From assembly GCA_965649765.1 (NCBI GenBank), contig OZ287755.1, positions 31,620,001-31,684,000 on the forward strand: a DNA stretch of 64,000 bases, written 5' to 3'. Below the pieces are notes generated by a model. The model saw only the letters and a program-made list of their open reading frames with translations. It was not told the origin of the DNA and did not search any database. A program made the translations under genes and the position numbers. Below are positions 8,927 through 29,113 of the stretch, one piece after another; position 1 is the first letter of the stretch, and the number at the start of each line of letters is the position of its first letter. The stretch comes from Bispira polyomma (lineage: Eukaryota).

Positions 8927-9973
8927 ATGATGTCTAAGAAGGAATTTCAGTGCAGTGCATGTATGGGCAAACATGAGCGCCCAGTGGGAAAAAATGTCGT
9001 TATGTGCTGGGGCATGGCGTCGCCGATGAAGTAACCACAGTTTGTCATGCTACTACCCCTGAGATGTCGGATACAGTGTCCAGTTTAATCTTACAGCAGC
9101 TTCAGTCTCTCAATGAGAAGATAGATAGCATGGACCAACGTTTGCAGGTTACAGAGGCAGCGCTGTGCTCACCCAGCGCCAATAATTTGTCAAATGTTAC
9201 TGTAGCCAGTACTGCTAGTACCAGTATCGCCAATAGTGTTGCTAGTAATCCAAGTAAAAATGTAGCTAGTAGTGTTTCTGAACCAGCCGTCGAGGCAGTA
9301 GTCCCCTCCTTAGATTTTCTTAGATCAAATGAAAACCTTCAGTCTCAGGTGGATCAGCGCCTACTGCAGTTGCAACAATTAAATAAGTGGGCAGGAGGTA
9401 AAATTAAATCTCAACGTGGGGGTGTTGATGCACCTATAAAAGGGCTGTAGACTGGCCCCAGAATTTCGTTTTATCAGGAACAAAAAAGACCACACCCACC
9501 TATGACGATTTATCTCTAGTCCAGTTTACATCTGGTTTCATACGTTGTGTGCAAGAACAAAAGGTCCCAGCCATGCGAGAAGCTATGCTCGAGTATTTGG
9601 CTAATCTTATGGATGATGCCCATCATTTTTCATGGGAAGCAGCCAAGGCCTCACACGCAATTCTCTTAACAAATATGGAACTTGATTGTCTTAAATGGAC
9701 AGATGTTGATAAGATTGACCTCATACGTCGGGCTCATGCCCAACGCCACCTTACTTTGGGTGCCAGTGGCTCTGTTTCTAAAAAGTCGAATGGTGCCTCT
9801 AAGAGTAAGATACAGCTTAAAAGCCAAGGCGTGAACTGCAGGTTCTTCCAAGAAGGCACCTGCAAGTTCAATGCAAGTCATCGTACTTCGGATCAGTTAT
9901 TCAAGCATGTCTGTGAGAATTGTGAGGAGGCCATCAGACAAAACTGTGTACTAAAAAGAATGTAAAAAACTAA
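8927..9973 (+). pseudogene. gag-like ORF1 of E2, frameshifted
   Basis: N-terminal CSACMGKHERPVGK zinc motif, coiled-coil-like segment, WPQ, WEAAKASHA, RRAHAQ, C-terminal Cys/His fingers. Confidence 0.8.
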
Positions 9974-12454
9974 GGGGCCACTGCAGTAATGCAGTGGCAG
10001 ATAGAAAAAGGTTACAAAAAGTCTACTCTAGAGTTGTGTATAATTCAGCATTTACTGATTTTAATCTGTGTGAAAAGGTGTGTTTTAATCATGTATCAAG
10101 TGTGTCAAAAGGTCTTACAGGGACGTGGTGTTGGGAAAAGCTGTTTCTGACAAAATAAAACAAGAAGGTCCTGTGAGCGATGTTGGGAATAATGAAAGGC
10201 AGGCTCTTTCTTTGGAAGTCAAAACGAGAACTTTCAGTAAAACAAAGGGTGCCAAACTGAAACATGTAAATAAGCCTTTACATTCTCCCAGGTCGCACAA
10301 TGGAAACTTCTGTGCCAACAAACCCAATTTATGCTCTATTGTTAGCAGGACTAACAACGTGTCACAAGTTGCCAAAGCCGAAGCAAACAATAAGTGTCAA
10401 AAAGCCCCTCCCCCAAAAAGGGGGGGGGGGTTCTTTGTCCCCAAATGTAAAACCAACTAACCTGGAACAAGGTGTCAACAACCAAAGTGATTTCCAATTA
10501 CCCGTTTACAATAGATTTGCATTGTTAGACTCCCCTAGTGTACAGGCCGCGGAAACTATTGTCTCTGCCCCCGTGGTTGATGGCAAATCTTGTCAAAAGC
10601 CTCCAAATAAACAAAAACGTACAAGAAACACTCAAGTGAATACTTGCGACGATAAATATGCATTGGAAGTGTACAAATGTCCCGATAAAAGACAGCGTCT
10701 AAATAGTGCCAAAAACTGCGATACCTACAAGTTGTGGGATATTCAAAATAACGGGAAATGTGGTTTTATTCCACTTAGCTCGTGGGGTGTACCCATTCAA
10801 AATGAATCACATAACAAGGTTACTATGGACGTGTTCACTTTACATAAGCGACTAAAACAAGATGGGCGGTCCAATTACAGGGGACTACAAATACCGGTGA
10901 TTACACAGTTGAATGCCCTAGTGTGGGAGAAACTGGGTATTGGGATTGGGAACTCCCTTTACTCATAAAATTTGGTTTCCCCCTTGATTGTGACGAGGAA
11001 CACGTCTTTCACTCTGACCTTGATAACCATTCTTCAGCTACTCAGTATCCAGATCATGTGACTTACTATTTTAAAGAGGAATGTAACTTTGGGGCCATAT
11101 ATGGCCCATTTGCAATTCCCCCAATTGATAAAGTACATACTTCTCCTTTCATGACCAGGGACAAGTCGAGTTCGATTAACCGATGAGTTATCATTGACTT
11201 AAGCTGGCCCCTCGTACATTCAGTTAATGCAGCAGTGTGTCCTACCATGTACTTAGGAAAGGAATTTATACTCCCTTATTCTTCTATTGATACAATCACT
11301 GAGCAGGTACTTGTCATGGGGAAAGGTTCCTTAATCTTTAAAGCTGATATAAGTCGCGCTTTTAGACATGTGACAATAGATCCGAGAGATATTAATTTGC
11401 TGGGACTGTACTGGGATGGTTATTACATAGACGGCTCGCTCCCGTTCGGTTTTAACACGGTTCGGCCATTTTCCAGCGAATTTCGGATGGAATAAGGTAT
11501 ATAATGCAGGGTGAAGGTCATCAGATTACGAACTACATCAACGATCTCCTTTGCTGCTCAGTACCTACAAAAATCTACAAAACCTACAATAGATTGCAGG
11601 CTCTATTAACCGAACTCGGTCTGACCTTGAGTAAGAACAAACTGGTTCCCCCTGCTACACAGGTTACCTGTCTGGGTATTGTTATAGATACTGTGGAGTT
11701 CACCACCTCCATACCAGAGAAGAAATTACTAAATATCCACACCACTTGTGATAGCTGGGCAAACAAAACATTCTGTACTAAACGTGAACTCCAGTGCCTA
11801 CTAGGTTCTCTCTTATATATTTCAAAATGTGTGAAATACTCCATGTTTTTTCTCAATAGGATGCTCCACCTCCTCCGAAGCAACCACAAAAATAAGTCAA
11901 TCAAAATTAACCCCGAATTCAACAAAGATCTCAATTGATTTAGAACCTTTCTTACCAAATTCAATGGGGTTTCCTTTTTTCAACACAAACCCATTACTGC
12001 TATTATAGAATTAGATGCCTGCCTTACTGGTATGGGAGGTATTTATGACAATCAAGTATACACCCTATCTGTACCTTTTGAAATGCAACAACTAAATATT
12101 GCTTCTCTAGAAATGTTTAACATTTTGGTAGCTCTGAGGTTGTGGGGTGTGCAATGGAGAGGTCGTGCAGTATTAGTACAGTGTGACAACCAGGCTGTGG
12201 TTAGTACTCTCACCCATGGCAGAACACGAGATGAGACTCTAGCTCTATACTCTAGAAATATTTTCATGACAGCCAGCCAATATGATGTGGAGCTGAAAGT
12301 AATACATATCTTAGGTGAAGACAACTCCACTGCTGATCTACTGTCATGATGGACCAACTCTCAGCAGAATTATACTCGCTTACATGAACTTGCAGGTCCA
12401 ACTCAGTGGTGCTCTGTTACAAATGATCACCTCAAAGTAGATGAAAATATATAA
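9964..12454 (+). pseudogene. pol (spacer, RT, RNaseH) of E2
   Basis: SPFMTRDK, KADISRAFRH, LPFG, YIND (YxDD site), ELDACLTGMGG, LEMFNILVA, CDNQAVV; several stops and frameshifts. Confidence 0.9.
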
Positions 12455-12498
12455 TTAATATAGCATTAGTGTCTTCCTTGTAGTTTCTATTTTTACAG

Positions 12499-13471
12499 AG
12501 AGCAACCCGGTTCAGCAGTCACTATACAGACATGCCACTGCCAAACTACACCTGGCTTTCTGTAGATCTACTGACAGGTCCTACAACTCAATGTATAGAT
12601 GATATCATGCCTATGCTGCCTTCATGGATTTTCTAGTGGATCAGGTGACTGTGTTTGACCTCCTTGCTTTAATTCTGTAAAACCTGCTTTGATGGCCAAT
12701 TATCTTTCTGCTATTAAGGCTAAGTCTATTGTCAATAATGTCTCCATTCTGGCCTTCAGTGACCCACGCATTGCTTACTATCAAAAGGCTGTCCAGATGT
12801 CGGCCCCTCTCCAGGTTAAACTGAAAAAAATTATAGATATCCCCACTTTGGGTCAAATTGTAAGACTTTCACTCACCACTTACATGGGACTGGTGTTTCG
12901 AGCTGTATACCTAGTTAGCTTCTTTTCTTTTTTACGCCTTTCCAATCTTGTTCCCCATGCTGTCCACCTTTTTTCTCCTTTAAAACACCTAGCACGTGGG
13001 GACGTTATGTTTCATCCTGATAAGGCTGTACTATTCATTAAATGGTCAAAGACCGTGCAGAATAATAAACAAATCAAATTAATCACCATCCCCTGTCTCA
13101 TGCCCCATGCCCTTTGCCCTGTGAGGTCACTTGAGGATATTATGGCTATTTCACCTTCTGGTGTTAACCTTTCTTTATTCCAGGTAAAAGTCAGCCAGAA
13201 GTGGGTACCTCTAACTGACACTAAGGTACGTCGTCATTTCACAGATATTCTTACCAGACTGAATCTTAAAGAGTCTGGACTTACCCTACACTCTTTCGGT
13301 CGTTCAGGTGCCACATTTGCCTTCAATAATGATGTTAGCATTCAAAATACACAAAACCATGGCACCTGGACCTCGGATTGCGTGTGGCGGTATGTCATCG
13401 ACACTGTTGATGCCGGCAACCAAGTGGTTGACACCTTTAAGCGTCAACTTACAGTCTTCCCCTTTCCTTAA
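12499..13471 (+). pseudogene. tyrosine recombinase of E2
   Basis: FLRLSN, KWSKT, HSFGRSGA, HGTWTSDCVWRY; N-terminal part has a stop and a deletion. Confidence 0.9.
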
Positions 13472-13606
13472 GCCTTTTTTCTTATACCCCTACCTTTTGG
13501 GGTTTGGCTGATTGTCATATGTAAATGATTTTACAGCTGTAACTTACTCAGCTAATTCACTTATTACTCATAAAGTATATGTAGATACTTCTAAAGCTCA
13601 CTTTAA

Positions 13607-13742
13607 TAAATTACGTAACTCGCTAGTCATAAACTCAGTAACTTAACTGTAATTACGTAACTTGTTAGTAAGCAATAAAATCAGTAACTTAACTGTAATT
13701 ACGTAACCTGCTAGTCATAAACTCAGTAACGTAACTGTAATT
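13607..13742 (+). repeat. ~3 tandem copies of a ~42-46 bp unit in the E2 3' region
   Basis: Unit AATTACGTAAC..CTAGTCATAAACTCAGTAACTTAACTGT is repeated. Confidence 0.85.
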
Positions 13743-15881
13743 GTCTCACTCTTAAGGCTATGCTTACAGTGCTATTTTTAACACCGTTAAATATATCTCT
13801 GCCTATAATGTAGTTCTAGTAAAACTTTACCATAAATTCACAGGTTATCGTAACTTCATTTAGACTCTAAGGTCACCTTTGCTTAACTGCCCACAGGGCT
13901 GTATAAATGTAATATGGACAATGACTTCCCCTTAAAGGTAAGGTGACCTTATCAAAATTATTACTCTAAATAAAATATTTATTGTAGGTGGCCTTAAGTC
14001 ACTTACTTGTTGTAATATTAAAATTAGTTATGGTGACCTTAAGTTGCCTTGTACACAGTAGTTTAACATCTTAGTCTAACAATAAATATTTTACCGCATT
14101 CTGTGTGTACACATACCTGTGTTCTTGATCTCTGACCTTTGACCTGTTACTTGGGGAAATGTATCAAGAATCTTTCGACTCAATCTTTTCTGTAAAATCA
14201 TGTAATAACAATATTATATCTGAACTAAAATCCAGAATCTACAACTACAGCTGAAAATCAATAAAATGTTTAATTAGACAACATACATCATTGCTTTCTC
14301 ATTTTATATACTACATTTTCTCTTTTAATGCTTACAAGATTTTTTTGTAAATAATGTGTTGGCTGTTTTAATTTTCAATCCATGCTTACAAAGCAGCATT
14401 AAAATGATGTCAAAGTATGGATCAAACATATGATATCCTGTGTAGTTCACCATTAGGTTTTATGGACCACATTACTGCAGTTTATCTTGGTAATAGGATT
14501 GTATTAAACACTCATTACACTACTGGTGCTCCACATTATATTCACTGTCGTTTGTACTCTCATTTCATTACAAGGCACTGCGTAGTTCTGGACTCACTTT
14601 AGTAGAAAGGCCATTTTATGTGAAGGATTTTGTGGGATAAGTTTTTTTAATTGCAAGCTTAATCAAAAGATCACTTTCTCATTTTAACAAAAATCAAAAA
14701 TTATTTCAGATATTTTAAGTAGTTACATGTATATTATTTTCTATTAGCTTTAACTGTTTAAAACTGAATGAAATCAGGTATATTCTCTATATCTAAATAA
14801 GGGGTCATCTTAACAAAAAGGTTAAGATATAGATATAAGTTACTATGCAGTGAAACTTTCATATCACCACAAGTAACTGACACATATTTGTGATATCAAA
14901 GTGTTACCAATGTTATCAATAATTCCTTTTATAGTTCTACGTTGATGCCCAAATATGACACTTTTGAAATGTAACATGAATGAAATTTGTTCAAAAGAGG
15001 AAACCATAATATATTCTTTTCCAGAAGTAGGTGGTTAGTGCCAATATGTTGTATATATCATCCTGGTGATTTGAAGAATGTGAATCATATATATTAAGTG
15101 ATTTAACATATGTCTTATCAGACAAAACAACTACAGTTAACATTAATTTGCTTTAATGCAAACTATACATGGTATTTACACCGGGAAATAGATCTACATA
15201 CTTTCTATATACATTCTATAAACAAATCAATGACCACAGCTAAGCAATTCTACAACTGTGCCGTAATGTTATACCAAATCTGCTATTCCCAACTGGTATT
15301 TTGTCACTGATCTGGGACAAAGGTTCCTGTCTATAACCCCCAATGTGTGGAGGCGTTATATACTTCCGGTTGATCATCCCCATTCAATCTTCCATTCCTC
15401 ACAGTCCCCACCCCACCAAGCCAAAGGATAATAAATAAGACATCTGCGGTTACTCTTTTATTATATATATGCACTCTCTAATACTACTATATATTTACAC
15501 ATCAATCATGATTATACACGGTTATACATGCTTACACATTATTACATAAAACACATTGTTCTCAAACCTATTGTGACCATAACTTAAACTAGGATCACTT
15601 TAAGGTGATCTTAACTTGACTTTACGATAACCTTAAACTGAGTCACTACTATAAGGTGACCTTAAGAAATTTGTGCAAAAAGTGGGCACCACTCTAAGGT
15701 GACCTTAACTGTTACATAATGGTTTTTTAGATTATTTACATTTCTGGTTAGTGACCTCATAGTGTCACCATAACTACATGTGTAGGTATATTACAGGAAT
15801 AGTTGAGTATTACATTTGTACGTATAAAATTTAAACCCAATATAACATTAAAAAACCTTCAAAGCCCAACCTGTAATACAT

Positions 15882-16907
15882 TTATTGCATATTATCTAGA
15901 ACATTCTGTAGTGATGTAGCCACAGTTTCACTCATACGTGAATCACCATGAATATATCTCCACGCACAATCCGACGTCCAGGTGCCATGCTGCTGTATTT
16001 GCTGGATAGATACGTTAGTGTTGTATGCAAACGAGGCACCTGAACGCCGGAACGTGTGGAAGGTGTAGTGGTTGGGGGCCAAGCCCAAGTTAACGTTAAT
16101 TTTTGACAAGACCTTGCGCACACGTGTGTCAGTTAGCACTTGCCATTGATGGTTAGATTTATACTGAAATAAGGGATCTAGCCTAGAAGGAGCATACAAC
16201 TTGAGTAGCAATTTTAAGGCCCTATATGGGCACAGTAGAGGGTCGGATAGCTTGGGGAGGGTAAGCAGATGTACTTTGTCACGTGTTTGCAAGGTTTTTG
16301 TCCATTTGATTAATATTTTAACTGAATCTTTGGTGAAAAACAAGTCAGCTGGGGTAAGATGCCTAGTTGGATCAAATGCCGAAATGGAGTGGGGGGAGAT
16401 GTTTGATATCCTCAGAAACCCGAAAAATGCTGTCAAAAAGACAGCTTTGAACACTGGAGCCAACTTTACATTATCACACTGTTGTATTAAAGTCTTTAAT
16501 GCTGGAATGTCCAATATGTTATGTGTGGTTATAGACAAAGGTCTGTTTAGCTTTGCAGCTTTTAGATAATATTTAATCTTTTGATTTTCAAGGGGGGAAA
16601 CTGGCAACCCCAGGATGTTGAAGTTGGCCTTAATAGCTGATATGTAATTAGCCATCATTTGGGGTGAGACACTGTTGAACATCAACAATTCTAGGAATGA
16701 CATTATACAATTTACAGATACTTTTTGCAATTGAATTTTCACATATATACAAAACGCCACAAAAGTCCTGAACTGTTGTGTGTATGAACTCTGTGTCTTT
16801 GGCCTGAAGGCTGCTTTGAGACGAGAATTAGCTTGTGTACCCAGCTTCTGCAGTAGCCGATGACCTGAAACAAAGTATAGCATCATTAGTTCTAATCTAT
16901 AATTCAT
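15882..16907 (-). CDS. intact tyrosine recombinase of E3 (probable exon start 16864)
   Basis: 341-aa ORF with FLRISN, KWTKT, HTFRRSGA and HGTWTSDCAWRY: full R-K-HxxR-H/W-Y set. Confidence 0.9.
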   Translation of the reverse strand: MNYRLELMMLYFVSGHRLLQKLGTQANSRLKAAFRPKTQSSYTQQFRTFVAFCIYVKIQLQKVSVNCIMSFLELLMFNSVSPQMMANYISAIKANFNILGLPVSPLENQKIKYYLKAAKLNRPLSITTHNILDIPALKTLIQQCDNVKLAPVFKAVFLTAFFGFLRISNISPHSISAFDPTRHLTPADLFFTKDSVKILIKWTKTLQTRDKVHLLTLPKLSDPLLCPYRALKLLLKLYAPSRLDPLFQYKSNHQWQVLTDTRVRKVLSKINVNLGLAPNHYTFHTFRRSGASFAYNTNVSIQQIQQHGTWTSDCAWRYIHGDSRMSETVATSLQNVLDNMQ

Positions 16908-19062
16908 TATCTACCCCTAGCATATTGAGTGAAGTTGTTAGCCATACAGGATTACTGATATAACCGTTCAACTCATTGACATTTTCTGCAGTGCCCTGCC
17001 ACCTGGATAACAAATCCGCTGTTCTATTTAATTTCCCTAAAACATGAACATATTCAAATTCAATGTCTGCTACTGCAGCTGTAAACCATATATTCCGGGC
17101 ACATGCTGCCAAAAAGGGATCTTTTACTCTGCCCAGCTTCAATGCCCATACCACTGCTTGGTTGTCACATTTAATGCACACTTTTTTTCCAGTCCAGTCA
17201 GCCTGAAATAACCTGGCAGCCAACAACACATTGATCATTTCTAAGTGCACAATATTAAGGTTCATGTAGTCTTTTGGGACTTGCAAATGGTAAACCCAAT
17301 TTTTCCAGACACCTCCAAGTCCAGTTAGACATGCGTCCAGCTCTATAATGTGATCCACAGCCCTGTAGTCATACATTGAAATACCATTGTATGAAGGAAG
17401 GAACTTACTAAACCACCTCAGGTCTCTGTGAAAATCATTAGTGAGCTTAATACTACTTGAGTTATGAGAATTTCTTAATAATTCAAGCATTCTATTGAGG
17501 AATGTACGAGCTGGTTTTACCCATTTGTGTACGTATAGTAAGAGCCCTAGCAATGACTGCAACTGACATTTAGTACATGTGTCTTTTGTTAACCAGTTTT
17601 TAACCATTTCTTGAATAGTTTTTCCTTTGGTATTGACATGGTACCTTCAACTGTGTCTATTAACACGCCCAAACATACTGCCTGGGTAGCAGGTGTTATG
17701 AGTTTTTTGTCACTGATATTTAAACCAAGATCTTGCAAGGTGCTAAATAAGCAATCATACGATTTTTGGACGACAGAGGGCGTGCCGTACCCGATAAAGT
17801 CATCGATATAATTTACGACATTGTAACCATGGCAATGCATAACATAACGTACCGCGTCACTCAATCTTTGGAATATTTGGCTGCCTTGTCTACTTCCAAA
17901 TGGGAGGCACGTATCTACATACGCCCTCTATTAACCGAATTTGGTTATTCTCTGCTCATGAATGGTGAGAAGTGCCCCCCTTTAATTGGATGTTCACTAA
18001 AAGGACCTAATATAGCCCCATACTTGGCCTCTTCCTACAAGTATACTTCAATATCTTCTGGATGGTCAGTGGCCGACTTATGGTTATTACCTTCCCACCT
18101 CAAAGGGCACTGAAGTCTACTGGGAAACCAAATTCAATCAGTTCCACCAACTGCTTATCCCAGTACCCATTGAGATATGTGCGCCAATTTTTGACATTTA
18201 ACTGTGATACCAATGGTATTCGTGCACCCCTGAAGTTATAATCTCCACTGTTCTTGATTACCTCATGTTGGTGAAAAGGATCAAGTATTGTTTGGGTGTT
18301 TTTTGCTTTAGATTTGTCACTACCCATTGGATCAGACAAGGGGATAAATCCAAAGTCAAACTCTGACTGAGTATGCCAAGCTTTAAAACTGGCCACATTG
18401 ATCAAATTAGTACTGTCCATGTCACGTGTCTTTATTCTTCCCAATACAGAATTGATGAATTTATCATCATCTGTGTACCTATTAACATCATAAAGCAAAT
18501 GGTTTGGTTTTTTAGGATCGTCACTTAGTTCACCTTGATCAATTTTATTAGTGTCACCACTGCTAACTTGCGTTGTTTCAACAGGCATGTCACCAATCAT
18601 GTCAATCAAGTGAATGTCACTTTGGTCAGTTTTTTCCCATTCATTACTTTGAACTAAGTCTTGGCTGTCACCACCCTTATTCGTCGTCAGTGTTAAAGCC
18701 AGGCCCATGTTTTTATTTGTGCCATTACTTTGATTGTCTGTATAGGCCATTGTTCTTTTGGAATGAAAGACTTTACTAATGATTCGATTGCTTTGCCTAC
18801 TTGGGGTGACTGTGCTTGTGTACTTAAAACTTTGTTCACTTTTACGTGCTAATAAAGCCTGGGTTTCTTTTACATTAACACCAGTACGATAGAAGACTCT
18901 TGTTCTAAATACATTGGCCACAACAAGAGAAGCAGTATATTTGACTTTCCCCAATTCCACACCATGCTGTTGAACACATACATTAGTACTAACCATATGA
19001 TCATTTACTTGTTTTCTGCTGCCCTCACCCTGATCTAGACTTGAGCAGCTTGCTAGTTTTTT
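16897..19062 (-). pseudogene. pol (RT, RNaseH) of E3 with internal RT deletion near 17920 and frameshifts
   Basis: NYIDDFIG, ELDACLTGLGG, CDNQAVV. The RT segment between SPFMSRE and YVDTCLPFG is missing relative to E4. Confidence 0.9.
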
Positions 19063-20221
19063 GCGAACATTTTCTTTTTAGCGAATGTGCAATCTTTTTC
19101 TGGGTGATTTAATTCCCTTCCCCTGTCCAAACATGTTGAACAAATATGTTTATGCATTTTTCCCCCTGTCTCATGATCTTTTGTGTGAGAGCAGCTACCG
19201 GTTTGAAAGTTTTTACAAAACCAAGGTTTTCTGGTTGTTTCAGTACTTCTTGCCCAATTTGATTTACCTGACCCTGCGAGATGTTTTTGCGCATGCGCCC
19301 TGCGAATCCTATCTATGCAAGATGTATTTTGCCATGTCAAAGTGCCTCTCTCCATCTCACACAACAGAACCACATGTGCCGCTTTAGCTCCCAGCCATGA
19401 AAAATCTGTTGCGTCCTCCATAAGTTCAGACATGTACTGTACCATTTTATCCTTAGTTTTACTATCACGTTCTTTCAAAATATTTTTACAGACGCCCTGA
19501 ACCCACTGTGTCAGTGACAGCTGGTCATAAGCAAGTCTTTGCCTGCTGGTCCCCCCAAAAATATATTCTTGAGGCCAGGCCACTCGTCGTTTAACAACCA
19601 CGTCAACATTGCCCCCCGTTTTGATTTAATTTTTGAGGTGAGAAATTTACCTGCCTGACATGCCCCTTCACATTCTAGTTCCCGTAACCTGCTGTCAACC
19701 TCCCTCTGTATGTCTTGAGAGGATCTTAATACAGACATAGTGGGTACCACAGATTCATCTGAAGAGGTGTCACTTTCACTTGAGATCATTCTACTTTTGT
19801 AACTACTTTTACTTTTACTGTAATGTTTCTGACAATCTACATCACTATCACTTTCACTGTTTTTACTTTTTGATTTGCTTTTACTTTTACTGTAATGTTT
19901 TTTAGAAGCACTACTTAACTTAGTATTGTCCCGTCTGGCACTTGTGGTTTTCGCCCGCACATCTGCGACTTGTCCCTCGACCATGTCCAGTCGTGAGTTC
20001 ACCTTCTTGAGTTGCATCAGGATTTGCATCTGTACACTGTCCGTGTCCTCCACTGCTGACTCCGCCATGTCCATCTCCAGACTCGCTGGCTGTGGTGTAT
20101 CCTTCACTCCCTCCACCTGTGAACTGCTACTGCCGTCGTCTACCAAGGTACACTTCTTCCCCGTGGGTGGTGCGTGCCTGGTCATACATTTTTGGCACAA
20201 TGCTTTATTGCTCTTAGGCAT
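19053..20221 (-). pseudogene. gag-like ORF1 of E3 (one frameshift near 19612)
   Basis: CQKCMTRHAPPTGKKC, Ser/Lys-rich internal duplication, WPQ, WLGAKAAH, RRAHAQ, C-terminal Cys/His fingers. Confidence 0.85.
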
Positions 20222-20867
20222 TTTTAATTGTCAATGTTATCTGGAATTTCTGAAAAATATTCACAGCCCTCTGAACGCTGATGTGACAACTTCAAGCTTG
20301 TGATCAAAATTCGACCAATTTGGACAACATTAACTAGTTAAAATGATTTGAATCGTCCCTTTTAAGATGCCCTTTCAGGCAATACAAGCATGAGGTTGTC
20401 AGATCAGCCGAGTGCACTCCAACTGTATTCCGACTCCACTGAGTGAGAATTACACAAGTACTATTCCATGTTCTAGTCCGTTTCTTAAGTCCAGTTTATA
20501 TATGCACAATCACTAAAATGAACTAAAAACGTAAAAACAGTTTGTAAAATTGATAAAAGCTTTATAAATATAAAAACAGTTCTAAACAATTTAAAACAAT
20601 TTAAGCACGTCTGTGCCATTCGATCTCAAGTTTTAAACTGAAGCTAAGTCACAAATGGTAGGTGAACCCTTACACTTGGGCCAATCAGAATTTAAGATAA
20701 TAAACAATTTGAACCCCTAACAACCAGTGGAAATCCCATGATGTCATAACCTTTTTACCTGTTAAAATTAGTCTGGTAACTTAAGCAGATTTCTAAAGGG
20801 TGAGGCAGGACTGACTCCAGTGAAGCCTAGACACCACGAGTGACAAGACACTTCTGGATAAAAGATC

Positions 20868-21105
20868 ATGGCCTGGTTTCCTCTAAATTAATTCAAGCTC
20901 AATTTAGATTCAACTCAAATGACGGCTATCTGTTATTCACTGAACATGGAAATAACGTTCAGTTGTAACCATTCATTTTAATAGAGTTGAATTTTTAAGA
21001 TTTAGTTAGATGTTACCTATCTTTAACGCTAGCCCGAAATAGGGAGACCTCAGGTTTGAGCTTGATTCTGAGTTGAGCTTGAGATGTTTGGAGAATATGG
21101 CACAG
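20868..21105. mobile_element. degenerate fold-back MITE-like element
   Basis: TCAAGCTCAATTTAGATTCAA at the left is an imperfect inverse of TTGATTCTGAGTTGAGCTTGA at the right. Confidence 0.55.
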
Positions 21106-21299
21106 GGCCTCCTGTTAAAAGTAACTGACACTTAAACTCACAACTAAATCTTAGGATAAAGTACCATGTGAGAGCAATGATATATGGAAATACTTGTAAC
21201 CCCTAATATTATTCATTACTTGGTTTAATAGAACTTTCAAAACTGAATAATTAAAATATAAATGCACATTGTATTTTTACATCTTTTTATTTACAAACA

Positions 21300-21640
21300 T
21301 CAACAGTCAAACACCAACAAAAGCACACACACATAAATATGAATATATGAATTGGGACAAAATTGGAAAAAATACATAAGAAAGACAATATTATAGCCAA
21401 AAATAACATAGAAGAAACCACTGCTCTTTCTCTTGAGGATACAAAGAAATAATGAAAAGATTAAAGACCTGTTGACACATCTCCCACATGTTTGTAAAGA
21501 CAATGCACGTCTAGGGATCTATTTGCAGAACACATAGCTCTGCAAGTTAGACATCTGTATCTCTGTCGCTAATGGAATATTTTTGTTGTGGGGTATGATT
21601 TCTCATGTTATCAAATATTTTTAGCCACATTATTAATTTA
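21300..21640. repeat. diverged duplicate of ~29440-29740
   Basis: Shared CTGCTCTTTCTCTTG.GGATACAAAGAAATAAT and CCTGTTGACACAT..TTTGTAAAGACAATG. Confidence 0.8.
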
Positions 21641-23199
21641 ATTGTAAAAGATCATAAGAGAGTCACTGAGTCCTATATATTTAAACATAAATATTTAACA
21701 TCACATAATTGCCATATCAAACCTAAAATTGTACTCTGTGTAAATGTAACAGCAGATTTAAAAAAGATAAATGTGGTGCCAGAAACAAGAATTATGGTAG
21801 ACACTATCCCAAATTGTATGACCTAGAGCCTTAGGAACATTGATAAATGGTCATCCCTATCAACCTCTCATAGACACAGAAGCTAGGCCCACACTATGGA
21901 AGCCTCCATTGCAATAAATGTTAATTGATTTACCCTTGCAGTATCCATTAATTGATTATCCCACTGGCTTTATTGGTGGCGTCTGCACCTTTGTGTCTCT
22001 AAGTTTTCTGTGTAGGAGAATAGCCAAGAATTAGGTGTTTCTTTAAAATTAATGGTCTTAGCAAAAGGCAAAGACTAATAATTTAAAGAAACACCTGATT
22101 CAAGGCAATTATCTGATTTAAACTGCTGAAAACTAAGGTGACGGTAACAAATTGTATTTTTAAGTATTGTTTAAAGTCATTTCGAATTTCTAAATACACA
22201 TACACCCAATATAATTATAAATAAAGGTAATGTGATACAATTTTATGTTAATATAATTTTATATCATAATTTTGATAAATAAATGTAATATATATTTAAA
22301 AGTTACTGAATATGATGTACCAATGTAAACTTGAACTGAGTAATTTAATAAACAAAGTCCTTCATTGATGTGGCCCAGAAAGCAGACAGGACATTCTTTA
22401 AAAGGAAAATTTTAAACAATAGGTATCACCCAAACAGGAGTTTAAATTTATGTTAATGTTTTCTGTGTGTAGTGATTTGCAAGTAAAGAAATATAGACTT
22501 TGGAATATCTCTATAGAGTATAGAAGAAGTTCACAATTCTTTAAAAAATAATTGCACAATTTATTGAACCTCTGGGAGGTGATGGTAGCCAAATGGCAAA
22601 TATTATAATACATATGTCAGGTACTTGTCGTATGGCTTACAGTGCTTCAGCACTGCTTTCTTCTACCATTGAATTTGACCATCGTAATATGACATAAACT
22701 GTTTAAACTGATATAATAGTTTAATAAATAACATTAATAAGTAACAGCCCATTGAAAACGATTTTTGAGGAGTAATTTTTTCAATAGATATCTGTACTGA
22801 TGTCCCTTCCATAGATTCTATCTTAAAAAATTACATTGGCTTCCCATTTATTGTCGAATTCTGTTTATAATCCATGTCAATAATTTCAAAGCGGTTGTCT
22901 CTCAACAACCCTCCTACCTTGCAACTTGTGTTTACTTGAGTAATCTCAAGAGAGGAAAGGACTTGATGTTTTCTCTTTTATTATTATTGTAGAACGTTTT
23001 TAGTTGCTGTCCTCTCTGTTAGGGACTAGTCCCCCAGTTGAACTTGGATCACAAGTTTAGTAGAACAATCTATTTAGTAATATAATATAACGTTTTCTGA
23101 AGAAAAGCAATTTCACTTTTTCTCCAATATTTTACATCCACTTTGTAATAGTACAAATTGTTTAATCCACTGCTTACCAATTTGTGTATTCCAGTACTA

Positions 23200-23344
23200 T
23201 ACAAGGCAACGCCCTAGCGTTGGTGGGTTTAGTTCGGGATACCAGACTGCTCGTCACGCCTGGCTGTGTTTCACTATAAAAGGCAGGAAAATTTAAATCT
23301 CCCTCCTTTTCGTCAACCGTCAGCAGAAGAACAACTTCAAAATA
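23200..23344 (+). repeat. terminal repeat A1 of E4 with TATA box
   Basis: 145-bp direct repeat of 27771-27915; contains CACTATAAAAGG. Confidence 0.93.
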
Positions 23345-23448
23345 GAATAACCTGAAGGGTTAGGCAGAGAGTCTATGTTTTGTGTTTTACATTTTTATAT
23401 TTATTTTTTTACAATTTTAGATTTTTAGTGTAACAAACTTCTCTCATA

Positions 23449-24291
23449 ATGCCACGAATTAAGGTTTATAGTTATGCAAAATGTATGGGGAAACACGCTA
23501 GGCCAGTGGTAACAAATGTACTCGGGTATTGCATGAGGGGTCCGTTTCCGAGGACGAAATCAAAGGGGCAGTTTCGGAAGCTACTGACGTCTGGCCGCTG
23601 TTTCTAGTAAAATATCGCTGAAATTAGAAAGTATGGGACAAATGATGGAACGATTAGATAAACGTGTCTTGGTCACGGAGGCGGCTCGGAGCACGGACTC
23701 TACTAAAGCTCAGGCCAGTTTGATTTGCAACGCTAGTCCAGTGACTGCTTCGGTTGAAAAGGTCAATACTATAAGTGATGATAATGTGATTCCTAGCATC
23801 GAGTTCTTGAAGAAAAATACCTGCATGGCCCCAAAATCATGTTCTGTCGGGCAATTTTAAAACACGTCCGAGTTATGATGATCTGTCCCTCAGCCAATGG
23901 GTCTGTGGATTTACCAGAATAATTCAAGACGAGAAAAAGCCGGAAATTAAAGAAATCATGTTAGATTATATGGCAGGCTTAATGGAGGACCAAAGCCTGC
24001 CATGCGGTCGTGTTGACCACAATGGAAATGGACAAACTCCAATGGACGGAAGTCGATGAACCGGTTGAGGCGAGCTCATGCCCAGAGACACGTCGCTAGT
24101 AGTAGCAGTAGCTATAACAGTACTCATAGTGGCCGTAGTAGTAAAAAGCCAACTGTAAGTTTCATCAAGAAGGCACGTGCAAATTTCCTTCCAGTCATAA
24201 AAGTGGAAATACCTTTTTTAAGCATGTTTGTAAAACTTGTGCTGGAGCACATAAGCGTAGTAACTGTAACCGAAAATTGGCCAAAAACTAG
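23449..24291 (+). pseudogene. gag-like ORF1 of E4 (internal deletions, frameshifts)
   Basis: AKCMGKHARPV, IPSIEFL joined directly to WPQNHV, RRAHAQRH, CKTCAGAH..C. Confidence 0.8.
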
Positions 24292-24884
24292 GAGCCCACT
24301 GCAGGAATGCAGAGAAATTAAAATGTGTGACCCTAGCCCAGTATCTGTACACAATAGGTTAAATGTACTAGCTTCTTCGGATTTGACAGACTCTGTTGAC
24401 ACAGATAAGGTAATGCAAACAGATCACATAGTTACAAAAAATAGTAGCTCAGTGCGACGCAATACTGTTGATATACGTGCTAGTATTGCGCATCAAACTA
24501 AAACAGTGGATACTGAGGACACTGTAGTCAGTGATAAATATGCTCTAGAATTAAAGCAAAAAATCAACAAAAAATAGCTTTTAAACAGGGCTAAAAATAA
24601 CCCTACATATTGTGAATGGCGCAGCCAGAACAAAGTCCAGTATGGCTTTACCCCAGTGTCCGGCTTAGGTTGTAGAATCTGGGATAGGCAGGCCAACAAC
24701 TATAGTTCTGATATTTTACAAATGCACAAAGCATTGAGAACTGATGGTAGACAAAATTTTAAGGGCTTGCAGATACCTGTTAAGTCACAATTAAACCCTG
24801 AAAAATGGTCGCATTATTTAAAGTCATATTGGGAGTGGCAATTGCCGTTATTAATTAAATATGGTTTTCCGCTTAATGTGATTC

Positions 24885-26306
24885 GTGAAAACATTAGTCA
24901 ATAACTTTCCAGAGCACGTAGACCTTTATTTAAAAGAAGAATGTAACCATGGTGCTATATTGAGCCCATTTTCTAGCCCACCAATAGAAAAAATGCATTT
25001 TTCCCCTATGATGACGTGCAATAAATCCAGCTCGAGTAATAGGCGGGTCATTGTTGACCTTAGCTGGCCAATTGGCGAGTCCGTAAATTTGGGGGCTTCT
25101 TCTAACAAATATTTGGTTACAGAATTCATATTATCTTATCCTTCAGTTGATAATCTCACTAATGAAGTTCAAAAATTAGGTAGAAGTTGTCATATATTCA
25201 AGGTCGACATAAGTCGCGCATTCAGGCACGTGCCTATTGATCCAGGTGACGTAGATTGGTTGGGTTTAAAGTGGGATTCCTATTATTTGGATAGATCTCT
25301 CCCGTTCACCTTTCAGAACGGAACCACTATTTTTCAGAGAATTTCGGACGCGGTTCGATTTATTATGTTACAGGAGGGATTTCACATCCATGCCTACATC
25401 AACGATTTTTTATGTGTAGCTCTTCCCAGTAAAAGCAATATCATATATGACAGACTCCAAGCTCTGTTGGGTGAATTAGGTCTTACTGTCAGCCCTAAAA
25501 AGTTAGTTCCTCCTAACACAAAGGTAGTATGCCTGGGCATTTTGATAAACACAGTGGACTTTACCACTTCAATTCCTGTGGAAAAAATGAACAAAATCAA
25601 AAAATTATGGGAAAATAAACAAAATTGTACTAAGAAAAAATTGCAGTTACTGCTTGGGTCCCTTTTATACGTTTTGAAATGTATTAAATATGCTTGGGTG
25701 TACCTTAACAGAATGCTACAGTTCTTACGAGATAACCATAGCAAGAAAAGATTCTCAATTACTACCGAATTTAAGAGAGATCTTAACTGGTTTAGCACAT
25801 TTATGCAACAATTCAATGGTACTAGTTTCTTTGCCCACAGACCTATTAATGCCCAGGTGGAACTGGACGCTTGTCTTACTGGCATGGGGGGTATATATGA
25901 TGGGCAAGTGTATAAGTTAACTGTCCCTCAGAATATGTCTCAACATAATATTGCATATTTGGAAATGATCAATATTCTTGTGGCTATTAAGTTATGGGCC
26001 AGTGATTGGCAAAGTAAAAGAGTATTATTTAAATGTGACAATCAGGCCGTCGTCAGCATTCTGACCAGTGGTCGCACCCAGGACCTGGTTTGGGCTACCT
26101 ACACTAGAAATATATACATGTGGGCCAGTCGGTTCGACATAGATATTAAAGTTATTCACATACTTGGTGTTAAAAATAAGGTTGCTGACCTTCTATTCAG
26201 GTGGGATAAGACAAAAAATAATGTGCAGTTGTTGCATGAATGGGTAGGCCCTGTAAAATGGCTTCCAACAAATGAAGCATTATTGGAAATAGATACTGAT
26301 ATTTAA
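24885..26306 (+). CDS. RT-RNaseH of E4 (open frame; catalytic YxDD reads YIND; upstream part frameshifted)
   Basis: 473-aa ORF: RRVIVDLS, KVDISRAFRH, LPF, YINDF, ELDACLTGMGG, CDNQAVV, NKVADL. Confidence 0.9.
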   Translation: MKTLVNNFPEHVDLYLKEECNHGAILSPFSSPPIEKMHFSPMMTCNKSSSSNRRVIVDLSWPIGESVNLGASSNKYLVTEFILSYPSVDNLTNEVQKLGRSCHIFKVDISRAFRHVPIDPGDVDWLGLKWDSYYLDRSLPFTFQNGTTIFQRISDAVRFIMLQEGFHIHAYINDFLCVALPSKSNIIYDRLQALLGELGLTVSPKKLVPPNTKVVCLGILINTVDFTTSIPVEKMNKIKKLWENKQNCTKKKLQLLLGSLLYVLKCIKYAWVYLNRMLQFLRDNHSKKRFSITTEFKRDLNWFSTFMQQFNGTSFFAHRPINAQVELDACLTGMGGIYDGQVYKLTVPQNMSQHNIAYLEMINILVAIKLWASDWQSKRVLFKCDNQAVVSILTSGRTQDLVWATYTRNIYMWASRFDIDIKVIHILGVKNKVADLLFRWDKTKNNVQLLHEWVGPVKWLPTNEALLEIDTDI

Positions 26307-26331
26307 TGGAATTTTTATGTTTTATTTTCAG

Positions 26332-27296
26332 GAAGCAATCCCATTAAAAACTTGCTGACAAGTCAGGCCTGCAAGAGGATGCACACTGCTCTAGCTGCCT
26401 CTACCACTGCTGTTCAGGCTTTTCATAGCTTTCAGCATTTTTATGGCTTGGCCAGCCTCTCAGGTGAATGTGTTCCATATTCTTACTTTTCTAGAATTCT
26501 TAAGCTATAACAGTGTGTCTTCCTCTCAAGTGGCTAATTACTTGTCAGCTTTAAAAGCTAAATGTATTCTATTCCATATGGATATCCAAGCTTTCTCTGA
26601 CCCTAGGATTTCTTATTACACTAGGGCTCTTCTGGTTAATAGACCACTGCAGGTCAAGTAAAAAAGTGTCTTTGACATTCCTCTCATGTTGAAGCTAGTA
26701 GAAAAATGTGAAGCCACCTATATGGGTTTAAAGCTATGTATGTAACAAGTTTTTTCAGTTTTCTTCGTTTATCTAATTTGTGCCCCCCACTCTAGGGCGG
26801 CATTCTCACCCCTTAAGCATCTGGCCAGGGGGGACGTTTTGTTTAAACCTGATTATGTTATTCTTTTGGTTAAATGGAGCAAGACTTTGCAAATTAATGA
26901 TGCAGTGAGGCTTTTGTCATTACCAGCTCTCCCCTCTTCCAAATTGTGCGCAGTGAGGGCCTTAAAAGCTGTACTAGCTGTGTCTCCCCCTGACAGAATG
27001 CCCCTTTATTTCAGTATAAAATTAATAATTCTTGGGTTCCAATGACGGATAATCGGGTGAGACGCCATCTTAAAAATGTCCTGGCTTTAATGGACATGCA
27101 GCATTCAAATTTAACTTTTCATGCCTTCCGGCGTCCAGGGGCCATGTTCGCGTTTAATAACAATGTTTGTCTGCAGGACATTCAGCGGCATGGCACCTGG
27201 ACGTCGGATTGTGTGTGGCGATATATTACCGATTCTGCTCAAGTAGGCACTCAGGTGGCTGATTCCTTGCTATGGCCCTACAAACTACCCCCTAGA
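26332..27296 (+). pseudogene. tyrosine recombinase of E4, fragmented
   Basis: FLRLSN, KWSKT, HAFRRPGA and HGTWTSDCVWRY across ORFs 26443, 26839 and 27042. Confidence 0.9.
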
Positions 27297-27337
27297 AAGA
27301 TTTGGGCTTGGTGGTTTGGGACATCTCAGAAAGAATC

Positions 27338-27771
27338 AAGAATCACAGTACTTGGGGCTTAAGGGCACCTTATTTTGGGGAGTACATTATGTACTCTTAC
27401 ACATCACTTATTAAAAATTCTAAATTCTAATCTTTATTCAAAATCTTAAATTGATCGACTTTATTTTAAATCTTTAATTCTTAAACTGAACTTTTTAAAT
27501 TCAAGTTAGGGTCACCTCTTTCCTTTTCAAAATTTTGGTCACCTTAACTCCAGTTTAAGAACTTAATTTATGGTAACCTTACTTTCTTAACTTATACTCA
27601 CCTTAGGGTTAACCCAACTTATCTTAACTTAAGGTCATCATATGCCCCTTCACTAATTGTATATAGTAGTTGTCTAACATGCTAGTATACTAATAAACTT
27701 GTGAACCGCAGCCTTTTTTCTGTATTACAAATTAAAATCTCATAGTTTCTGCTCTGGTTCCTGGGAACTGT
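27338..27771 (+). repeat. repeat B1 of E4
   Basis: 434-bp direct repeat of 28680-29113. Confidence 0.93.
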
Positions 27772-27915
27772 ACAAGGCAACGCCCTAGCTTTGGTGGGTT
27801 CAGTTCGGGGTACCAGACTGTTCGTCACGTCTGGCTGGGTTTCACTATAAAAGGCAGGAAAATTTAAATCTCCCTTCTTTTCGTCAACCGTCAGCAGAAG
27901 AACAACTTCAAAATA
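27771..27915 (+). repeat. repeat A2 of E4
   Basis: Copy of A1, abutting B1 at GGGAACTG-T-ACAAGG. Confidence 0.93.
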
Positions 27916-28679
27916 CCCACCCTCCTCTGCCCTGTTTAATTTTTGTTGTACTAGTTTCAGATGCTTACAATATCATTCACGGAGCAGCAGTGATCCTGTC
28001 ATGCCCTGTTGTGCTAGTATAAGCTGCAGGCTCGTTCCGACCTTGTGTTTGGGCTCATCACCACAGTACTCCCGGTCGGGTGCAAGATGGGATGTATGGT
28101 TTAACATTCTAGGCTCTGTGTTGTGGGCAATGACGAACTTTAGACAGCTTGTGACCTGGAGACTCCGGCTGTGGTGTATTATGTTGATGCCTGGATCCTG
28201 CTGTTTTGTTAAAGTGTTTAATTTAGTAATTAATTCTTTTCCTCCAACTGTATAATGTTATTAAGGGGTTGTATTGCTCAACCATGTAAGACTGTTGCAG
28301 TAGAGCTAAAGAGGGGAAATTCTGAGTTTAATAAACTTTACAAGATGGCTGCTTTACCATCTACCCGGGTTGGTTACCCTATACTAAATGACTTGTGGTG
28401 GAGTATATGCTATTAAATATTCTGTTATACCACGCTAACCGTGACCAGTCCTGCCTGTTGGCCGTTGTCCTTCTTCTCCTTTTGCTGATGTTTTGACATA
28501 AACTGTATTATTATTGTTTCTTTTAATTTCTTTTAAACTTTTACATTTTTGCATTGAATTTACACAAGTTATATGTTTTATTTACTGTGATATGTGGTTT
28601 CGGAAATCTCTTCTCACCTCAAACGTTAAAAAGTTTATCTGTTAAATAATAAAGAATACCAAAGGTCAATAAATAAATA

Positions 28680-29113
28680 AAGAATCACAGTACTTGGGGC
28701 ATAAGGTCACCTTATTTTGGGGAGTACATTATGTACTCTTATACATCACTTATTAAAAATTCTAAATTCTATTCTTTATTCAAAATCTTAAATTTATCGA
28801 CTTTAATTGAAATCTTCAATTCTTAAACTGAACTTTTTAAATTCAAGTTAGGGTCACCTCTTTCCTTTTCAAAATTATGGTCACCTTAACTCCAGTTTAA
28901 TAACTTAATTTATGGTAAGCTTACTTTTTTAACTTATACTCACCTTAGGGTTACCCCAACTTATCTTAACTTAAGGTCACCTTATGCCCCTTTACTAACT
29001 GTATATAGTAGTTGTCTAACATGCTAGTATACTAATAAACTTGTGAACCGCAGCCTTTTTTCTGTATTACAAATTAAAATCTCATAGTTTCTGCTCTGGT
29101 TCCTGGGAACTGT
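28680..29113 (+). repeat. repeat B2 of E4
   Basis: Copy of B1, ending GGGAACTGT. Confidence 0.93.

Follow-up and report, generated by a model that had tools for sequence, protein, structure and literature searches.

How is the polymerase of a retrotransposon translated when its reading frame is offset from that of gag and opens with no conserved start codon? The question is raised by a stretch of 64,000 nt of the 1.03-Gb genome of Bispira polyomma (contig OZ287755.1, positions 31620001-31684000; called the window below and numbered from its first nucleotide). The window contains several decayed elements encoding a zinc-finger Gag, a reverse transcriptase with RNase H (RT/RH) and a tyrosine recombinase (YR). 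In three of them, E2, E3 and E4, the end of gag carries a potentially slippery heptamer followed by a hairpin. Comparison of these copies with their relatives suggests, with a probability of about 0.85, that Gag-Pol is made by programmed -1 ribosomal frameshifting at A_AAA_AAC and the stem-loop behind it.

The cassette at the gag/pol junction

The heptamer of E2, the TAA stop codon, the 6-nt spacer and the 9-bp stem are all present where the preliminary description had placed them (Table 1). The fold has a z score of -3.28, and none of 200 shuffled sequences folds equally well. Counting both strands, the window has 116 N_AAA_AAC sites; those of E2 (-18.0 kcal/mol) and E3 (-13.3 kcal/mol) are followed by the strongest folds, the next being -11.4 kcal/mol. 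An Rfam search of positions 9000-25000 gave two matches far under their gathering scores and none at the cassette. In E3 the fold is weaker (z -1.85; 10 of 200 shuffles equally good), and the -1 frame runs, as described, without a stop, for 318 codons to position 18100. E4 has its C_AAA_AAC, TAG and short stem in the expected places; no fold signal was found there (z +0.64). The long downstream frame of E4 is +1, for which a later indel had been postulated. This indel is real: a deletion of about 394 nt accounts for both the +1 frame and the lost 3' arm of the stem. Most relatives of E4 have A_AAA_AAC and a 9-bp stem. In three of 11 aligned relatives the -1 frame is still open, or nearly so, throughout the variable linker that follows the junction, and most of the others carry private indels.

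Each of the three copies is damaged, and details read from a single copy are misleading. Gag had been said to end with K-N-stop. Relatives of E2 do so, while E2 itself ends with K-R-M-stop because of an indel in its last zinc knuckle. In E3 the heptamer, TAG and stem are in place; the TAG is private to this copy, being absent from all 22 relatives listed, in which gag is 6 codons longer and stops within the hairpin. The gag stop follows the heptamer at a distance of 0, 3, 18 or 21 nt, which rules out K-N-stop as the defining feature. The distance from the heptamer to the stem is always 6 or 9 nt, and the heptamer itself lies 4-13 residues past the last Cys. A conserved GNRA tetraloop was dropped as well, as the 4-nt loops vary freely (GTAA, GAAA, GCAG, GTAT, ATGA, AAAA and GAAG all occur). 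A pseudoknot in the E3 lineage was considered by eye: some families have complementarity between the loop and downstream bases, which looked inconsistent from one family to another.

Better-preserved copies give a clearer picture of the frame geometry. For a census, 76 long loci were fetched and their gag ends located by means of the zinc fingers, the heptamer not being used. A gag end was found in 57 loci and missed in 19; 38 copies are of the frameshift type (L194 by its stem, its heptamer being damaged), 15 have a UAG junction and four have gag and pol fused. The frameshift-type copies carry A_AAA_AAC in the gag phase in 34 cases, A_AAA_AAU in three and a broken heptamer in one. In 35 of the 38 the frame that stays open longest is -1, and neither a conserved pol ATG nor a shared splice acceptor before pol was found in the frameshift-type copies compared; the better-preserved copies thus have the geometry that the preliminary description had predicted for them. 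L168 and L170 read +1 because of two different single-base deletions just downstream, and L180, the third exception, is a decayed copy. In three families a near-complete pol ORF (823-842 codons) extends in the -1 frame from the junction: L092 has gag and an 838-codon -1 ORF spanning RT and RH, and L158 and L163 are similar. The linkers of seven copies from different families (229-278 codons) have no stop in the -1 frame, 10-16 in frame 0 and 31-41 in +1. In five single copies (L162, L175, L185, L231 and L246) gag and pol are fused through an indel or a lost stop.

The spelling of the heptamer was examined at silent sites in family representatives, 21 of the 23 tried being located. K-N is preceded by S, A, P, V or T, all four-fold degenerate, and the third base of this codon is A in 21 of 21 (background 26%). 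The Asn is spelled AAC in 20 of 21 (background 33%). None of the 35 other K-N pairs in the same gags is spelled A_AAA_AAC. In the remainder of gag, codon use at silent sites is scrambled, with a mean top-codon share of 0.56, and only two of 68 control columns are equally fixed. This conservation of the heptamer at silent positions is strong evidence of selection as RNA, although it does not amount to a statistic on independent samples. Two further gag columns, 45 (Asp, GAT) and 148 (Cys, TGT), are silent-invariant in 19 of 19 representatives, unlike their neighbours, and might possibly mark other RNA signals.

The slot behind the heptamer is occupied by stems of different sequence in two subclades. 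The E2/E4 lineage has a perfect 9-bp stem with a 4-nt loop, and the E3 lineage has 7-11 bp and a larger loop. The fold z is -2 or lower in 15 of the 21 representatives. Traces of the cassette are also visible in other assemblies. Their Gag homologs are 43-65% identical, and 109 of the 120 listed have a readable finger end; K-N followed by at most eight residues ends the protein in 99 of the 109, with S, A, P or T before K-N in 92 of the 99. Such ends are read as the protein footprint of the cassette.

By combining these observations, the expression of Gag-Pol may be described as follows. Most ribosomes would terminate 0-7 codons past K-N and release Gag. A minority would pause at the stem, where tRNA-Lys and tRNA-Asn could re-pair one base back. 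Translation would then pass through the variable linker of about 230-280 codons into RT/RNase H, giving a high ratio of Gag to Gag-Pol. The recombinase would come from a spliced Gag(N)-YR RNA. According to the available portions of the literature, the layout of heptamer, spacer and stem drives tandem tRNA slippage (PMC3542737, PMC5009743), a spacer of 5-9 nt is typical of -1 sites (PMC3542737), and A_AAA_AAC ranks with the heptamers most prone to shifting (PMC5009743).

Counter-evidence and rival routes to pol

Several observations weigh against programmed frameshifting. The search pattern of the silent-site test forced the inner A run and the stem-start motif, so that only the flanking bases and the spacing are free tests; as the families share ancestry, the counts are not independent. 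The seven linker copies were selected as open. Folding is weak (z above -2) in six of the 21 representatives. Covariation, which had been proposed as a check on the stem, is thin: two-sided changes occur at one of seven pairs in the E3 lineage and one of nine in the E2/E4 lineage, the rest being invariant or alternating between C-G and U-G, and the stem bases double as protein-coding sequence. The K-N ends in other assemblies are evidence at the protein level. Finally, ATG codons do occur in the linker: one lies 72-73 codons into pol in eight of nine copies of a young family, with good context in the one checked, and the E3 family carries another at pol codon 14.

These ATG codons lead to the thought that pol might be translated from its own linker AUG, whether by reinitiation, by leaky scanning or from an internal promoter, the conserved motif serving packaging or termination instead. 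An in-frame linker AUG is indeed present in most families, but its position differs between them (codons 9, 14, 43, 61, 73 and 95), L092 lacks any before codon 389 and L169 lacks any ahead of the conserved motif. Moreover, the open frame reaches all the way back to the heptamer, and initiation in the linker leaves the fixation of A_AAA_AAC at silent sites unexplained. We regard this route as very unlikely. Splicing of pol from a donor in gag to an acceptor close to the 5' end of pol seems still less probable. It would make use of the phase-1 donor conserved in gag, and phase-1 acceptor-like sites exist in L163 (+3) and L176 (+396); yet eight frameshift-type copies share no phase-1 acceptor, and six of the eight have none at all. 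In the UAG copies the TAG|G resembles an acceptor, but in phase 0 against the phase-1 donor, and a pyrimidine tract precedes it in only one of four copies tested.

Transcriptional slippage, by which a base added within the A run would fuse the frames in the RNA, appears to be the least probable of the three. The junction does have an A6 run, and in L175, a single copy in the genome, one more A is present there and the gag-pol frame is fused. The run is, however, held at six A and is usually flanked by C, and a slipping polymerase needs neither a fixed codon phase nor a stem 6-9 nt away. Typical runs for transcriptional slippage are longer than A6. Programmed -1 frameshifting on the ribosome is the reading that we prefer.

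A sister clade with in-frame stop codons

E5 belongs to a sister clade in which the frameshift cassette is absent. All 15 UAG-type copies of the census, which are related to E5, end gag with TAG-G, and frame 0 is the longest in 14 of them. In the E5 family the junction pattern was matched in 27 of 30 loci, and all 27 read TAG-GGG. Twelve of these stay open in frame 0 up to the end of the locus, the -1 frame closing within 12 codons and the +1 frame within 6. The TAGG and a short downstream motif are shared by ten of ten family representatives of this clade, whereas frameshift-type families vary in their stop. The motif resembles A-C-N-A-C-Y-A and lies 15-21 nt from the start of the UAG. Folding of the junction in 11 copies gave no sign of a local stem (z -2.3 to +2.2), a result that covers local folds only, pseudoknots and long-range pairing not having been searched. 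To judge from this arrangement, the sister clade probably makes its Gag-Pol by readthrough of UAG-G.

The resemblance is to type III readthrough in gammaretroviruses and luteoviruses, as presented in the accessible part of PMC3542737: UAG-G is fixed and pol is in frame 0. As far as local folds go, the lack of a detected stem sets the sister clade apart. A third kind of junction is present in relatives from metagenomes. The junction is visible in five of the 14 (L248, L249, L252, L256 and L257), and in all five an in-frame UGA, with C or U as the next base, separates gag from pol; one has a second stop.

In a tree of 32 representative rows out of 83, the frameshift-type elements fall on one side of a branch (support 92/94), the UAG elements form another group (100/100) and the UGA elements occur in three places. 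Midpoint rooting makes frameshifting the derived state, with the proviso that the root is not established and that long branches meet. The UAG clade (E5 and loci L197-L245) has in addition a longer region before RT: in L227, L234, L241 and L242 the first 320-440 pol codons contain a stretch without annotation that is rich in Tyr, Cys and His and appears to be shared.

Ngaro affiliation, recombinase expression and known recoding systems

The ORF order gag, RT/RNase H, YR is that of Ngaro elements. The YR match to Pfam (E 1.2e-4) is under the curated cut-off. Pol ends about 35 residues past the ADLLSRW motif of RH, which leaves no room for a methyltransferase domain. Split direct repeats in the arrangement A1-ORFs-B1 A2 B2 are present in E4 and in the relatives L091 and L093; none were found within the window for E2, E3 and E5. 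Ngaro elements are characterized, in the available text of PMC8547959 and PMC3783388, by gag, RT/RH and YR ORFs, absence of a methyltransferase and split direct repeats. Judged by gene order, the absence of a methyltransferase and the repeats, E2, E3 and E4 are Ngaro-like retrotransposons of the tyrosine-recombinase type, all of them decayed. Between the A2 and B2 repeats is a unique segment of 485-760 nt (L091 7022-7506, L093 6947-7431, window 27916-28675). Four gag matches of equal score follow one another at intervals of about 5.58 kb in G000:C8:46521397-46538412, which suggests that one element is arrayed there head to tail.

The recombinase is likely to be made separately, by a splice from Gag(N) to YR, as the preliminary description had supposed. 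Most of the frameshift-type copies tested have, at the DNA level, a phase-1 donor (AG|GTA) within gag together with an acceptor that is in frame and lies about 30-85 nt beyond the pol stop. The UAG clade also shows a clear donor, and the YR acceptor was not reliably picked by pattern. Three contig sets that are not on record as RNA contained no joint like the predicted one, which counts neither for nor against the splice.

The cassette is a new case of a textbook recoding class, the mechanism itself being known. The gag-pol cassettes of retroviruses and long terminal repeat (LTR) elements, HIV-1 among them, share with it X_XXY_YYZ in the gag phase, a 6-9 nt spacer, a stem-loop and pol in -1 (PMC3542737 and PMC5009743, as far as their accessible text goes). 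It differs in its carrier, a tyrosine-recombinase retrotransposon with no integrase, and in the variable linker that follows the site. Ngaro, of the order DIRS, is portrayed with the same ORFs, no methyltransferase and A1-ORFs-B1A2B2 repeats in the available portions of PMC8547959, PMC3783388, PMC9210276 and PMC3266345, and these portions describe no gag/pol recoding signal. A frameshift at the overlap of RT/RH and YR was proposed by Poulter and Butler 2015, as quoted in the accessible part of PMC13003380; the cassette described here is placed at gag/pol instead, and the signals seen at YR are those of a splice. No description of a gag/pol cassette was found in the DIRS/Ngaro literature searched, the reviews of Poulter and Butler 2015 and of Poulter and Goodwin 2005 and the Repbase annotations being outside that search.

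The expression of start-less ORFs in tyrosine-recombinase retrotransposons can now be approached through a testable cassette of 40-60 nt placed at gag/pol, with about twenty natural A_AAA_AAC variants and two different stems. The data suggest that frameshift and readthrough clades occur side by side in one genome, as among retroviruses. It may be, and we give it an even chance, that animal Ngaro elements follow a retrovirus-style plan in which one transcript yields a recoded Gag-Pol and a spliced Gag-YR, and that readthrough was exchanged for -1 frameshifting once, both modes being abundant in one genome. If true, this would offer a natural experiment on the reasons for which one mode of gag-pol recoding gives way to another.

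Table 1. Positions in the window of the junction, splice and repeat features of E2 to E5
Feature	Position	Strand	Remark
E2 candidate phase-1 donor in gag (AG|GTAA)	9391..9405	+	located by reading; missed by pattern
E2 gag C-terminal ORF	9429..9965	+	CCCH/CCHC fingers; premature end
E2 slippery heptamer A_AAA_AAC	9964..9970	+	kept in relatives
E2 pol start, -1 frame	9970..10158	+	about 62 codons open, then decayed
E2 6-nt spacer with gag stop TAA	9971..9976	+	TAA at 9971-73
E2 9-bp stem, 4-nt loop	9977..9998	+	predicted frameshift stimulator
E2 candidate acceptor before YR	12491..12503	+	
E3 candidate acceptor before YR	16862..16873	-	in frame with donor
E3 pol 5' part, -1 to gag	18100..19077	-	open via variable linker into conserved FGFP motif
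E3 stem-loop, 7-bp lower stem	19018..19049	-	arms 19049-43 and 19024-18
Usual gag stop of the E3 family	19037-19035	-	inside stem-loop
E3 TAG	19053..19055	-	private to E3 copy; 0/22 relatives
E3 slippery heptamer A_AAA_AAC	19056..19062	-	
E3 candidate phase-1 donor in gag	19645..19657	-	
E4 split direct repeats	23196..29113	+	A1 23196-23344, B1 27334-27771, A2 27767-27915, B2 28676-29113
E4 heptamer C_AAA_AAC	24282..24288	+	most relatives A_AAA_AAC
E4 residual 5-bp stem	24295..24312	+	about 394 nt deleted directly after 24312
E4 candidate acceptor before YR	26324..26336	+	
E5 gag stop UAG-G	57374..57377	-	candidate readthrough junction; pol in frame 0 in relatives

A separate segment, duplicated in multiple copies and bordered by splice-like sites, occupies positions 38845-62060 of the window; it is probably a tandem host gene family.

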